Source: Escherichia phage HK97. Taken from it: a stretch of DNA of 39,732 nt. The stretch is taken from the sequence record NC_002167.1. One strand, given 5' to 3'. Below the pieces are notes generated by a model that saw nothing but the letters and a program-made list of their open reading frames with translations, searched no databases and had not been told where the DNA came from. Of this stretch, positions 3,348-28,955 are shown in pieces (within the stretch, counting starts at the first letter, position 1; the number at the start of each line of letters is the position of its first letter). A program made the position numbers and the translations under genes.

Positions 3348-4025
3348 ATGCCTGAAATCGTAAAAACGCTGTCCTTCGACGAGACAGAAATCAAATTCAC
3401 CGGTGACGGGAAGCAGGGGATTTTCGAAGGATATGCCTCTGTTTTTAATAACACCGATTCCGATGGCGACATCATTCTGCCCGGGGCGTTTAAAAACGCG
3501 CTGGCGAACCAGACCCGAAAAGTGGCGATGTTTTTCAACCACAAGACGTGGGAGCTGCCGGTTGGTAAATGGGACAGTCTGGCCGAAGACGAAAAAGGGC
3601 TCTACGTTCGCGGTCAACTTACCCCAGGACACAGCGGCGCCGCCGACCTGAAAGCAGCAATGCAGCACGGCACGGTTGAGGGTATGTCGGTTGGCTTTTC
3701 CGTTGCGAAAGACGATTACACCATCATTCCCACAGGCCGGATTTTTAAGAATATCCAGGCTCTGCGCGAAATCAGCGTCTGCACTTTCCCCGCCAACGAA
3801 CAGGCTGGCATCGCAGCCATGAAAAGTGTCGATGGCATTGAAACGATCCGTGATGTGGAGAACTGGCTGAGGGATTCAGTCGGCCTCACCAAATCACAGG
3901 CAGTTGGGCTAATAGCCCGGTTTAAGTCAGCGATTCGGAGCGAGTCCGAGGGCGACGGAAACGAAGCACAAATAAACGCTCTGCTTCAGAGCATCAAATC
4001 TTTCCCTTCTAACTTAGGTAAATAA
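3348..4025 (+). CDS. prohead maturation protease (HK97 gp4-like)
   Basis: ORF between portal and capsid; start most likely ATG 3348 (G-rich SD upstream), giving about 225 aa; alternative in-frame starts at 3336/3345. Confidence 0.8.
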   Translation: MPEIVKTLSFDETEIKFTGDGKQGIFEGYASVFNNTDSDGDIILPGAFKNALANQTRKVAMFFNHKTWELPVGKWDSLAEDEKGLYVRGQLTPGHSGAADLKAAMQHGTVEGMSVGFSVAKDDYTIIPTGRIFKNIQALREISVCTFPANEQAGIAAMKSVDGIETIRDVENWLRDSVGLTKSQAVGLIARFKSAIRSESEGDGNEAQINALLQSIKSFPSNLGK

Positions 4026-25504: not shown

Positions 25505-25975
25505 CTAATAAAATACCCAATTTTCTGTTTCTTGGTTGTGCCCAAAGTTATATTCAATATCTGGTGTTGATGTATCAATATTCTTCATCCCATCAACAAG
25601 AGTTGATACAACAGCCAAATCTTGTTTGATTCTCATTAAATGGTATTTCTTCCGGCGCAATAAACTCTCAATGGCAAGTTTCTTCGTTGGGAATGCAAAA
25701 GATCTTTCTGCATTTTTTGCTACTTTCTTAATTGCATATCTATTTCTCCTTTGTTTCCATTCCTGTAACCACTGATTTGGTGCTGGTTTAAAATTAATAA
25801 TCCAATGCGCAGGAACCAACCATGCATAATGCTCTGTCTGATGAAAAGCTATATATTGAAGTGCGAATATTTTTATCCCATCTTCTTCAACTGTCGCCTG
25901 GAATCTCCAGAAAACAGGCATTCCATCATGTTCAGTTTCTGATTCAGGAAAAGGTACGCTCCATGATTTTGTCAT
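25505..25975 (-). CDS. hypothetical protein (AT-rich orphan in pL operon)
   Basis: 156-aa ORF with SD GAGGTG; markedly AT-rich compared with neighbours; no recognisable family. Confidence 0.6.
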   Translation of the reverse strand: MTKSWSVPFPESETEHDGMPVFWRFQATVEEDGIKIFALQYIAFHQTEHYAWLVPAHWIINFKPAPNQWLQEWKQRRNRYAIKKVAKNAERSFAFPTKKLAIESLLRRKKYHLMRIKQDLAVVSTLVDGMKNIDTSTPDIEYNFGHNQETENWVFY

Positions 25976-26033
25976 ATCTCACCTCAAATAAGTGGTTTGC
26001 TGCCTAATTTCATTTTCTGGCGACCAACACAAG

Positions 26034-26417
26034 TCACCTTGCTGTCAGTTGTTTTGATTTCCTGTAGCCTGCCGCGTAAAGAGCTACATTTGGAAGACAT
26101 ACACCAGTTTCTGGTTGCCTATGCCCAAACTCATTCGCGTACACAATGGCCGCTCTCTCCAGATTGCGTCTGTATTCTTTCTGTTGCCAGATCACGTCCT
26201 GTGCCATGAACTTAATTGGCTTAGCGTCTTCTATGCGCTCAGGCGTTTCGTGAGTACCTTTAGCCTGAATCTGCGCTCTGCTTAGAGTAGGGCGGTGTAA
26301 TACTTCTGAACTTATTGCTTCTTCGCGGGCCAGTACGCCGTTAGCTAATGCCTTTGCCTTTAAACGCTCACGACGACGAGAACGTGAATTGCCTTTGAAC
26401 TGAGTTCTGCGTGTCAT
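26034..26417 (-). CDS. N-like transcription antiterminator (P22 gp24-like)
   Basis: 127-aa ORF with SD GGAGG; N-terminal Arg-rich motif (RRTQFKGNSRSRRRERLKAKA); C-terminus LPNVALYAAGYRKSKQLTAR resembles recalled P22 N; first gene after pL. Confidence 0.7.
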   Translation of the reverse strand: MTRRTQFKGNSRSRRRERLKAKALANGVLAREEAISSEVLHRPTLSRAQIQAKGTHETPERIEDAKPIKFMAQDVIWQQKEYRRNLERAAIVYANEFGHRQPETGVCLPNVALYAAGYRKSKQLTAR

Positions 26418-26663: not shown

Positions 26664-26726
26664 TAGTATCACCGCCAGTGGTATTTATGTCAACACCGCC
26701 AGAGATAATTTATCACCGCAGATGGT
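26664..26726 (-). promoter_or_regulatory. OL1-OL2-OL3 operators with pL
   Basis: TATCACCGCCAGTGGTA, CAACACCGCCAGAGATA, TATCACCGCAGATGGTT match recalled lambda OL1-3; pL -35 TTGACA and -10 GATACT on the minus strand. Confidence 0.85.
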
Positions 26727-26908
26727 TATCTGTATGTTTTTTATATAGATTTATTTTTTTTGCAGGGGTGTGTGGCTTGGGAGGTGATCGAGAGATCTGA
26801 ATTGCGATGTTTAGTGAGTTGTATCTATTAATTTTCAAATAAATACAATTGGTTATGTGTTTTGGGGCGAACGTGAGGCAAAGAAACCCCGGCGCGGTGG
26901 CCGTTTAT

Positions 26909-27559
26909 TTATTGCTTAGGAGCTTGTTGTGATGACGATTGGTTAGTTGGAGCGCTCGTTAATGGTTGCTGTGTCGGTACCTGTATTATAATTGGAGCCG
27001 GGCTGGTTACTGATGGTGACTTGTCATTGCCGGAGATAATCCAACTTGAGGCTAACATCACGCCAGACAGAATCACAGTAACTAAAGTCAAGCCAACGGC
27101 CATCGCCCACTGAGTCGTTGTAAGTCCCGTTTTCAAACCGCCGATTTCACCTTTAATTTCAGCAATACCTCTCTCAATAGAAGAAAATTGCTGAGTATAA
27201 TAGGTTTTAAAGTCAGCTGATTCGCGACGCATTTCCGCAGCAATAGACTCTACCTCTGATTTGTTTTGTGAAAGCTTTGCGTCAAGTTCTTCTCTGGACA
27301 TTCCGCTCACGCTTACCTCCAGGGTATCACTCTTCATCGCTACATCTTCCTTACTTGGGCGCAAACCCGTTTCGTCCATGGCGTATGAAACTCTATTTGA
27401 TACCTTAGCATCAATACCAATACTTTGGTACTGAGATGGATCCCCATAAGGAGAAACGGTTGTCGCTGCTAGGGTTGCACTAACTATAATACTTGGAAGA
27501 ACTGATGATGTTGTTCCTGAGGTAGGTTGAACTGAAGAAACTGGCTTCAGTCTTTCCAT
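26909..27559 (-). CDS. membrane-anchored coiled-coil protein (rex-position module, gene 3)
   Basis: 216-aa ORF; start overlaps upstream stop by 13 nt; central charged helical region, single TM (WAMAVGLTLVTVILSGVMLASSWII), Pro/Ser/Gln-rich C-terminal tail. Confidence 0.6.
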   Translation of the reverse strand: MERLKPVSSVQPTSGTTSSVLPSIIVSATLAATTVSPYGDPSQYQSIGIDAKVSNRVSYAMDETGLRPSKEDVAMKSDTLEVSVSGMSREELDAKLSQNKSEVESIAAEMRRESADFKTYYTQQFSSIERGIAEIKGEIGGLKTGLTTTQWAMAVGLTLVTVILSGVMLASSWIISGNDKSPSVTSPAPIIIQVPTQQPLTSAPTNQSSSQQAPKQ

Positions 27560-27813
27560 AGCCCATTATCCCTGAGAGCTACCTGTAATGATTTTACTAA
27601 TGCAACAGCTTGATCCGGGCTCATTGAGACTGACATGTTAGGGGTCAACTCAACTTTTACTTGGAAGCTATTATTTCCTTGCTCATCAGACTGCATGTGA
27701 TGCTCAAATTCATGGCGGTAAAAAGTAATGATTGTTTCAGCACGATCAGGCGTAATAAGAACTGATGTGGCGGTCATGTGCTGAGGTATGATTTTAATAG
27801 TGTTATCTGACAT
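27547..27813 (-). CDS. small soluble protein (rex-position module, gene 2)
   Basis: 88 aa from ATG 27813 with SD aagga 7 nt upstream (frame stays open to ATG 27954, which lacks an SD); AT-rich. Confidence 0.5.
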   Translation of the reverse strand: MSDNTIKIIPQHMTATSVLITPDRAETIITFYRHEFEHHMQSDEQGNNSFQVKVELTPNMSVSMSPDQAVALVKSLQVALRDNGLWKD

Positions 27814-28005
27814 AAGTATCCTTTTTGTTTCCTTAGTATTTTTTTGCATTGACATCAGAAATAGCGAATCCACAAGAGTATGAGTAAAGCTAATCAGTTT
27901 AGTGATACGGTGACTATTAAAGTGGTAAACCACATCAAAGCTCGCAGAGTGCATACCAGGCTGTCACACATGACAAAGTAACGAGGATGCCTGATCTCAT
28001 AGCGC

Positions 28006-28161
28006 TCAAAGAGACATGCCGATAATGGCATTAACCACGCATGACGCCATAAACACGCCGCCAACGATGAAGCTGGCTTGGTTCTTCCTGGTAGCGCCAA
28101 GAGTCAACAGAACCACTGAAAGGGCAAAAAAAGGTATCGCGATTATGCTGAACGTGTTCAT
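28006..28161 (-). CDS. 51-aa two-TM membrane peptide (rex-position module, gene 1)
   Basis: ATG 28161 with SD GAGG 5 nt upstream; two hydrophobic helices; below the ORF-track size cutoff; 78 nt downstream of cI stop. Confidence 0.4.
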   Translation of the reverse strand: MNTFSIIAIPFFALSVVLLTLGATRKNQASFIVGGVFMASCVVNAIIGMSL

Positions 28162-28238
28162 GTTGACCTCAACTTATTTCGATTCTCCATCACCCTTAAT
28201 CCGCCGCCCCATGTGTTTGTTGTGATCCGTTGCTGGCC

Positions 28239-28955
<717 letters not shown>

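Follow-up and report, generated by a model that had tools for sequence, protein, structure and literature searches.

A two-gene cassette in the rexAB slot of Escherichia phage HK97: a candidate RexAB-analogous exclusion system

What does a phage of lambda immunity carry behind its repressor gene when rexA and rexB are not there? We addressed this question for Escherichia phage HK97, taking as our window the whole 39,732-nucleotide (nt) stretch of record NC_002167.1, whose position numbers are used throughout; the cassette and the flanking features described with it lie on the minus strand. The window opens with the terminase genes, a layout that fits a complete HK97 genome, and its structural genes share 98.7% identity with those of HK97-like phages. 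Between the cI repressor gene and the terminator Timm we find a conserved unit of two overlapping genes, encoding the 88-amino-acid (aa) protein gp49 (27547..27813) and the 216-aa protein gp48 (26909..27559). We propose that the pair may form a lysogen-expressed exclusion or abortive-infection system analogous to RexAB, in which an exchangeable sensor would act with a membrane effector, a reading to which we assign a probability of roughly 45%. The genes themselves are not new: as hypothetical genes 49 and 48 they have long been annotated, having come to light with the HK97 genome sequence, and a defensive role for cargo of the rex slot is a standard idea. New here are the definition of the conserved two-gene unit, the size of its family, and the modular exchange of partner and N-terminal arm combined with strict linkage to a repressor.

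The slot itself is delimited by sequences shared with lambda. The cI gene (28239..28952, 237 aa), labelled a LexA family protein in RefSeq, was placed by the map of open reading frames (ORFs) and has lambda immunity specificity, sharing 235 of 237 residues (99%) with cI from HK542, a phage of lambda immunity. It is the first gene of a PRM-type operon, and the cassette comes after it. Directly 3' of the gp48 stop codon, at the left edge of the slot, stands a Timm-type intrinsic terminator (26877..26906), located by alignment with lambda, HK542 and HK225. Outside the cassette, the operators OL1-OL3 (26667-26727) and the promoter PL (TTGACA-17-GATACT, 26693-26665) occupy 26665..26727 in the lambda-identical layout and begin the leftward early operon. 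From the stop codon of the 216-aa gene through Timm and OL/PL, the DNA aligns base for base with the lambda stretch 3' of rexB. Given this alignment and the identity of cI, the genes in between therefore fill the rexAB slot exactly, which is where the first-pass annotation had placed them. No promoter-like site was found on the coding strand inside the 26877-28263 block.

Three minus-strand ORFs, encoding 51, 88 and 216 aa, lie in the slot, as had been reported from the letters alone, and the description given of them also stands. The 51-aa ORF has two hydrophobic segments, in keeping with two transmembrane passes, and the 88-aa gene is AT-rich, with a G+C content (GC) of 0.41 compared with 0.44 for the 216-aa gene and 0.50 for the whole window. 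The start of the gp48 gene lies within the end of its 88-aa partner, the two reading frames sharing 13 nt (27547-27559). The 88-aa gene opens with an ATG preceded by AGGA 5 nt upstream and is the real part of gp49. We rejected the longer, 135-aa version of that ORF (start at 27954), which has no Shine-Dalgarno sequence and whose extra 47 residues are not conserved; homologues of gp49 all start at the 88-aa start position. The record of phage HK225 likens its identical copies to "HK97 Gp48" and "the C-terminus of HK97 Gp49". Both genes are real, because protein homologues are encoded with the same 13-nt overlap.

We then asked how far this arrangement extends beyond HK97. A 1.39-kb block (26877-28263) recurs at ≥99.6% identity in HK225, where it stands behind a different repressor, and in Lambdavirus PDP110P1, and 52 of 5426 complete Escherichia coli genomes carry it. 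Diverged pairs occur in the Klebsiella phages ST15-VIM1phi2.1 and 6 LV-2017, in K. michiganensis and on metagenomic contigs, with 44-66% identity in the partner and, in the two Klebsiella phages measured, 31-36% in the effector. The 13-nt overlap is kept in those cassettes with an HK97-type partner (class A, below) for which gene coordinates were read. The first-pass annotation had described a three-gene module, and that part of its account does not survive: no diverged copy contains the 51-aa ORF, and in these copies the pair starts about 40-100 nt after the repressor gene. The conserved unit is thus two genes.

Gene order around the effector is equally constant. A small co-oriented gene lies just upstream of the effector gene in every locus examined, comprising four genomes, in addition HK542 and the Kosakonia, Yersinia and Xenorhabdus loci, and, among the diverged viral contigs listed, 26 of 27 (contig L053 has no delimitable effector ORF). 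The next gene upstream of the pair is a lysogeny repressor in 10 of the 10 loci tested, namely six CI proteins of the S24 type, three CI proteins with only a helix-turn-helix (HTH) domain and one Arc/Mnt repressor. HK97 shows the whole set of cassette features: a small co-oriented gene upstream, one C-terminal transmembrane helix, a stalk with REELDAKL-NKAEV, and the repressor upstream. The downstream edge is shared as well. A hairpin of the form CCCGGCC-NNNN-GCGCCGGG-TTTTT follows the effector gene in HK225, in the prophage copy of E. coli TUM9803 and in every diverged class A cassette examined, those of Klebsiella phages behind other types of repressor among them.

Two observations concern these edges. 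The similarity to HK225 begins at Timm and ends about 25 nt inside the 3' end of cI (28239-28263); the cargo slot has its recombination boundaries at the terminator and at the end of the repressor gene. Separately, the Timm hairpin of the HK97 record is imperfect at 26887-26906 (A--CGGCCACCGCGCCGGGG-TTTC), reflecting either a GC-compression error of old sequencing or a real weakening that would allow read-through towards OL/PL.

The effector, gp48, appears to be a tail-anchored coiled-coil membrane protein. It matches phrog_5820 (E = 9.6e-69), a PHROG of unknown function. The earlier description of a helical region, one transmembrane helix and a Pro/Ser/Gln-rich tail was borne out by an AlphaFold2 model, in which residues 89-175 form a single helix with a predicted local distance difference test score (pLDDT) of up to 97 and disordered ends, and by a single hydrophobic segment at residues 150-177. 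We divide the protein into four parts. Residues 1-86 (27302..27559) form a variable N-terminal arm predicted to be disordered (pLDDT ~50), which holds the class-A-specific motif LPSIIVSATLAATTVSPYG, recurring in other class A cassettes. Residues 87-149 (27113..27301) make up the conserved stalk, with pLDDT 95-97 for residues 90-120. The hydrophobic segment (residues 150-177; 27029..27112) is the predicted transmembrane helix and is rich in small or polar residues (Gly, Ser and Thr), and residues 178-216 with the stop codon (26909..27028) constitute the Pro/Ser/Gln-rich tail, predicted to be periplasmic and carrying the motif Q-P-(I/V)3-Q-V-P.

This architecture is a property of a large family. 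When 1.8 billion cluster representatives were searched in full with HMMER, 203 clusters matched at E ≤ 1e-3, 107 of them at E ≤ 1e-10. The figures that follow on architecture, tail and consensus rest on 82 members. All 82 have exactly one hydrophobic segment, always near the C-terminus, and a variable N-terminal region of about 40-120 residues. The start of the helix follows the consensus I-S-R-E-E-L-D-A-K-L-x-x-N-K-A-E-V-x-A-V-A-A-x-M-R-x-E-M-A-x-W/F-R and is followed by a coiled coil, rich in Gly and varying in length, with Q-W (T-T-Q-W) at its end. Column frequencies reach 0.98 for E91, 0.96 for L96, 0.95 for E102, 0.96 for Q150 and 0.99 for P189. The tail ranges from 4 to 65 aa with a median of 35, and usually includes Q-P-(I/V)3-Q-V-P. 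In Citrobacter-type relatives (loci L043, L049 and L044; effector C-termini at ~3900-3970), the tails consist of (Ala-Pro)n with n = 6, 7 and 9, a length polymorphism in the predicted periplasmic tail of otherwise near-identical proteins.

The partner belongs to a much smaller group. Gp49 matches phrog_26809 (E = 1.5e-69), also of unknown function, and its family comprises about 10 distinct sequences at 44-66% identity from Escherichia, Klebsiella, Raoultella and metagenomes. It is a soluble protein, modelled by AlphaFold2 with four β strands and a C-terminal helix (pLDDT 78). No significant fold match to this model was found in the PDB or BFVD, and a PDB profile search was empty too. In Pfam, DUF3467 (PF11950) matches one of 10 class A partners at E = 0.08, and the HK97 protein has no match.

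Across loci of the gp48 family, at least four partner classes occupy the same position. Class A (87-99 aa) is that of HK97, class B (143-147 aa) that of HK542, class C spans 96-108 aa, and class D (111-131 aa) carries two CxxC pairs; further partners fit no class. Some of the partners are zinc-ribbon-like. Class C is possibly a distant relative of class A, the hhalign comparison giving E = 0.002 at a probability of only 14%. Pairwise scores separate the two halves of the effector: the N-terminal arm is similar only between loci of the same partner class, whereas the stalk and transmembrane helix are similar across all loci, independent of partner class. No fewer than three stalk/transmembrane types occur with class A partners, and the HK97 stalk is closest to those of Yersinia and Kosakonia. 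We interpret this pattern as the signature of a partner and docking-arm unit that can be swapped on a constant effector. A variable sensor on a constant effector is typical of defence systems, and the logic of a small soluble partner acting with a membrane protein, suggested earlier for this locus, fits a translationally coupled pair in which partner class co-varies with the arm.

One instance of this exchange is in HK542 and HK244, whose c105-c104 genes are true relatives of the HK97 pair. The 206-aa c104 protein shares the stalk and transmembrane helix of gp48, its gene lies between a 99% identical cI and Timm, and a small overlapping gene precedes it. The partner, however, is an unrelated 144-aa protein of class B, and the N-terminal arm differs; this pair, too, is uncharacterized.

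Searches for a function gave little to build on. As the first-pass annotation had stated, the proteins show no kinship to RexA, RexB or any curated family searched. Compared by BLASTP with lambda RexA, the 88-aa and 216-aa proteins gave no alignment or E ~1; the comparison with RexB gave E = 0.68 over 13 residues. Profile and structure-based searches of the kind proposed at the outset (Pfam, PHROG, NCBIfam, PADLOC, PDB and fold search) assigned no function to the proteins. Scans of the three HK97 proteins and the 82 relatives against Pfam, NCBIfam and PHROG returned only PHROGs of unknown function and sub-threshold coiled-coil matches. In PADLOC-DB 2.0, the three HK97 proteins had no match beyond noise at E ~0.01, and the 82 relatives gave scattered coiled-coil matches (LmuB, JetC, ZorA and CorA) in six members at most. 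The gp48 model had no Foldseek match at all, and a PDB profile search with gp48 yielded coiled-coil noise. In the literature searched, the proteins are not mentioned by accession, and HK97 genes 48 and 49 have no functional account.

Gp48 also resembles DUF1640/CCDC90-like proteins (PF07798; MCUR1, CCDC90B and prokaryotic relatives), whose plan of a head, a coiled-coil stalk and a C-terminal transmembrane helix it may share. Gp48 itself scores 12.6 bits (E = 0.12) against PF07798, below the gathering threshold of 33.5 bits; the best scanned relative (in locus L059) reaches 29.1 bits, and 26 of 82 relatives match at E ≤ 0.01 (best 2e-8), aligned to the stalk and transmembrane part. CCDC90B and MCUR1 were not found in the PDB profile search with gp48. 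DUF1640 proteins carry a β-layer motif at the start of the stalk, and β-layers cap trimeric coiled coils (PMC4786415). The I-S-R-E-E-L of the gp48 family resembles that motif at the same place. A conserved Asn at a coiled-coil core position fits a trimer, and such an Asn is present in the gp48-family consensus. The resemblance supplies no mechanism, because prokaryotic DUF1640 proteins have no known function.

In position and composition, the cassette parallels lambda RexA-RexB. Both pairs occupy the same slot and predicted transcription unit, from the cI stop to Timm and upstream of OL/PL, and both combine one soluble with one membrane protein. The exclusion exerted by the lambda pair extends to T4 rII and other phages and goes with a loss of membrane potential. 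In the published account, RexB is an ion channel and RexA the intracellular sensor that triggers it (PMC10884400), and the structure of RexA is reported to be very similar to RdgC (PMC12315714). The proteins differ in kind: RexB, with 144 aa, is polytopic, while gp48 combines one C-terminal helix with a long coiled coil, and RexA has 279 aa compared with the 88-aa β-sheet protein gp49. The genes overlap in the HK97 cassette and not in lambda rexAB, and no sequence similarity links the two pairs.

Other prophage systems offer partial parallels. The region after the repressor is recognized as a place where prophages keep accessory genes, rexAB and bstA among them, the latter lying directly downstream of cI in Salmonella prophage BTP1 and being transcribed from the cI promoter (PMC7067206). 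BstA is an abortive-infection protein that localizes to sites of phage DNA replication (PMC8585504). It differs from the HK97 pair in being a single protein with no membrane counterpart, and PADLOC detected no similarity between them. Prophage pairs acting against heterotypic phages, Rex-like in their logic, are also described for Gordonia phage CarolAnn and mycobacteriophage Butters (gp30/31) (PMC6426606, PMC7542560); they are prophage-expressed and combine a cytoplasmic with a membrane component. The likeness is one of described logic, and the hosts are unrelated. Membrane components of the actinobacteriophage pairs are polytopic, compared with the tail-anchored coiled coil of gp48. Sbash gp30/31 is reportedly a further two-component prophage defence of this kind.

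From these comparisons we infer, purely by analogy, a defence or abortive-infection activity for the pair. We envisage a mobile two-gene cassette that, in the lysogen, would make up the distal portion of the PRM/PRE repressor transcript, ending at Timm. Gp48 would sit in the inner membrane by its single C-terminal helix, with the stalk, probably trimeric, and the flexible N-terminal arm in the cytoplasm. Gp49, its synthesis matched to that of gp48 by the 13-nt overlap, would bind the arm, so that partner and arm together could form a specificity module, acting as sensor or lock and exchanged between phages, on the constant effector of stalk and membrane helix. A product of a second infecting phage might disturb the partner-arm complex, whereupon the membrane part would compromise the membrane or a membrane-bound process and the infection would stop. 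The outcome would be a functional analogue of lambda RexA-RexB assembled from unrelated proteins. A broader proposition, which we advance more tentatively, is that the cassette represents a new class of prophage immunity: a membrane-anchored and probably trimeric coiled coil shared across Enterobacterales prophages and armed by interchangeable small sensors of at least four unrelated folds, each docking on a matching N-terminal arm, so that a phage could change its exclusion range by swapping a unit of about 0.5 kb in the repressor operon.

Several observations weigh against a defence function. No homology to a known defence protein was found, PADLOC returning coiled-coil noise only, and structure prediction offers no more than a long helix in the case of gp48 and, for gp49, a small fold without a match. 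Reports of expression or phenotype for the cassette were not found in the literature searched. In Xenorhabdus/Photorhabdus-type loci, the genes lie elsewhere in the prophage, by tail, lysozyme and arc/ant-type genes rather than by CI. Co-variation of partner and arm is equally expected for a toxin-antitoxin-like pair. Finally, the lambda rex genes are not confined to exclusion: RexA and RexB are reported to assist the passage out of lysogeny into lytic growth, in a paper cited in PMC12315714.

This last report also favours the alternative that fares best, an accessory role in lysogeny without defence, directed at the life cycle of the phage itself or at host physiology, for example in the CI/Cro switch or induction, in tethering a host factor to the membrane or in stress adaptation of the lysogen. 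Such a role would suit the first 30 residues of the stalk, whose strong conservation across genera suggests a conserved binding partner, possibly of the host, and an architecture like that of membrane-anchored coiled-coil scaffolds of the DUF1640/CCDC90 type. The quick exchange of partner classes between otherwise similar phages nevertheless looks diversifying and conflict-driven, as in HK97 and HK542, which differ in partner and arm class despite their 99% identical cI. The cassette is also dispensable, being absent from lambda and many lambda-immunity phages. We regard an accessory role as unlikely.

Less probable again is superinfection exclusion at DNA entry, modelled on HK97 gp15, P22 SieA and T4 Imm, in which the periplasmic Pro-rich tail of gp48 would block the injection machinery and gp49 would serve as an assembly or stability factor. 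Gp48 is a predicted membrane protein made by a prophage, its predicted periplasmic motif is conserved (as reflected in P189), some relatives have spacer-like (AP)n tails, and HK97 already has one such membrane protein in gp15 (PMC3594210). The parts that are exchanged, however, are the partner and the N-terminal arm, both predicted to be cytoplasmic, which argues for a cytoplasmic rather than a periplasmic signal. Known entry blockers work as single proteins, and the tail is merely 4-8 residues long in some members. A toxin-antitoxin-like addiction pair, in which gp49 would restrain a membrane toxin gp48 with prophage stabilization as the main role and defence as a secondary one, seems the most doubtful: translational coupling with the small gene first, strict cognate co-variation of the partner with its would-be binding region and a single-pass effector with a transmembrane helix rich in small residues would all suit it, but no similarity to known toxin-antitoxin families was found in Pfam, NCBIfam or PADLOC, and post-segregational killing is of little gain to a chromosomally integrated prophage.

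If the pair is a defence system, as we propose, it would supply a role for some 200 protein clusters that are annotated in no database, and it would add a tail-anchored coiled coil, an architecture absent among known defence effectors. It would also provide a clean natural case of sensor swapping on a constant effector and explain what lambda-immunity phages carry instead of rexAB. If it is not, the cassette still encodes a conserved membrane function, predicted to be expressed in lysogens, in E. coli, Klebsiella, Yersinia and relatives. Carriage by the model phage HK97 makes the defence prediction directly testable.

The remaining ORF of the slot requires separate consideration. The 51-aa ORF (28006..28161) begins with an ATG preceded by GAGG 5 nt upstream and is predicted to encode a membrane hairpin of two helices joined by a TRKNQ loop. 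Its length is not significant, since 30% of shuffled sequences contain an ATG ORF as long or longer; two hydrophobic 18-mers within one ORF arose in only 1 of 5000 shuffles. All known copies are ≥99.6% identical, and the NCBI Prokaryotic Genome Annotation Pipeline (PGAP) calls the ORF in a minority of genomes. With the copies so nearly identical, conservation carries no weight on whether it is coding; we consider it likely to be coding. No homologue was found outside the HK97-type block, and an independent existence like that of a type I toxin was rejected, the ORF never being found without the block. It is probably a small membrane protein that travels as a lineage-specific passenger of the HK97/HK225-type block, outside the conserved unit.

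Between this ORF and the partner gene lies an AT-rich spacer of 192 nt (27814..28005; GC 0.40), corresponding to the spurious N-terminal extension of the 135-aa "gp49" ORF. It showed no RNA structure beyond that of shuffled sequences (z = +1.2), no small RNA, promoter or terminator was found in it (no Rfam match), and it could not be aligned with the upstream regions of homologous cassettes. In a Yersinia intermedia prophage (locus L012, 3746-4691), two extra genes of 132 and 135 aa stand between the repressor and the pair, both with an N-terminal hydrophobic helix. Small membrane proteins accumulate in this slot, as with the HK97 51-aa ORF and the two Yersinia genes.

Two further observations concern the region of the N gene. 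A 38-aa minus-strand ORF (25984-26100) lies just downstream of N, which is functional and of P22 type (26034-26417); its final 17 residues resemble the lambda N C-terminus (11/17, E = 2e-5), and it looks like a remnant of N-gene replacement. Directly after N, a 156-aa minus-strand ORF (25505-25975; GC 0.34-0.38) belongs to phrog_1636, of unknown function, and E. coli TUM9803 has at its position a "Nmad5 family putative nucleotide modification protein". The site after N is a second slot for variable cargo, within the early left operon.

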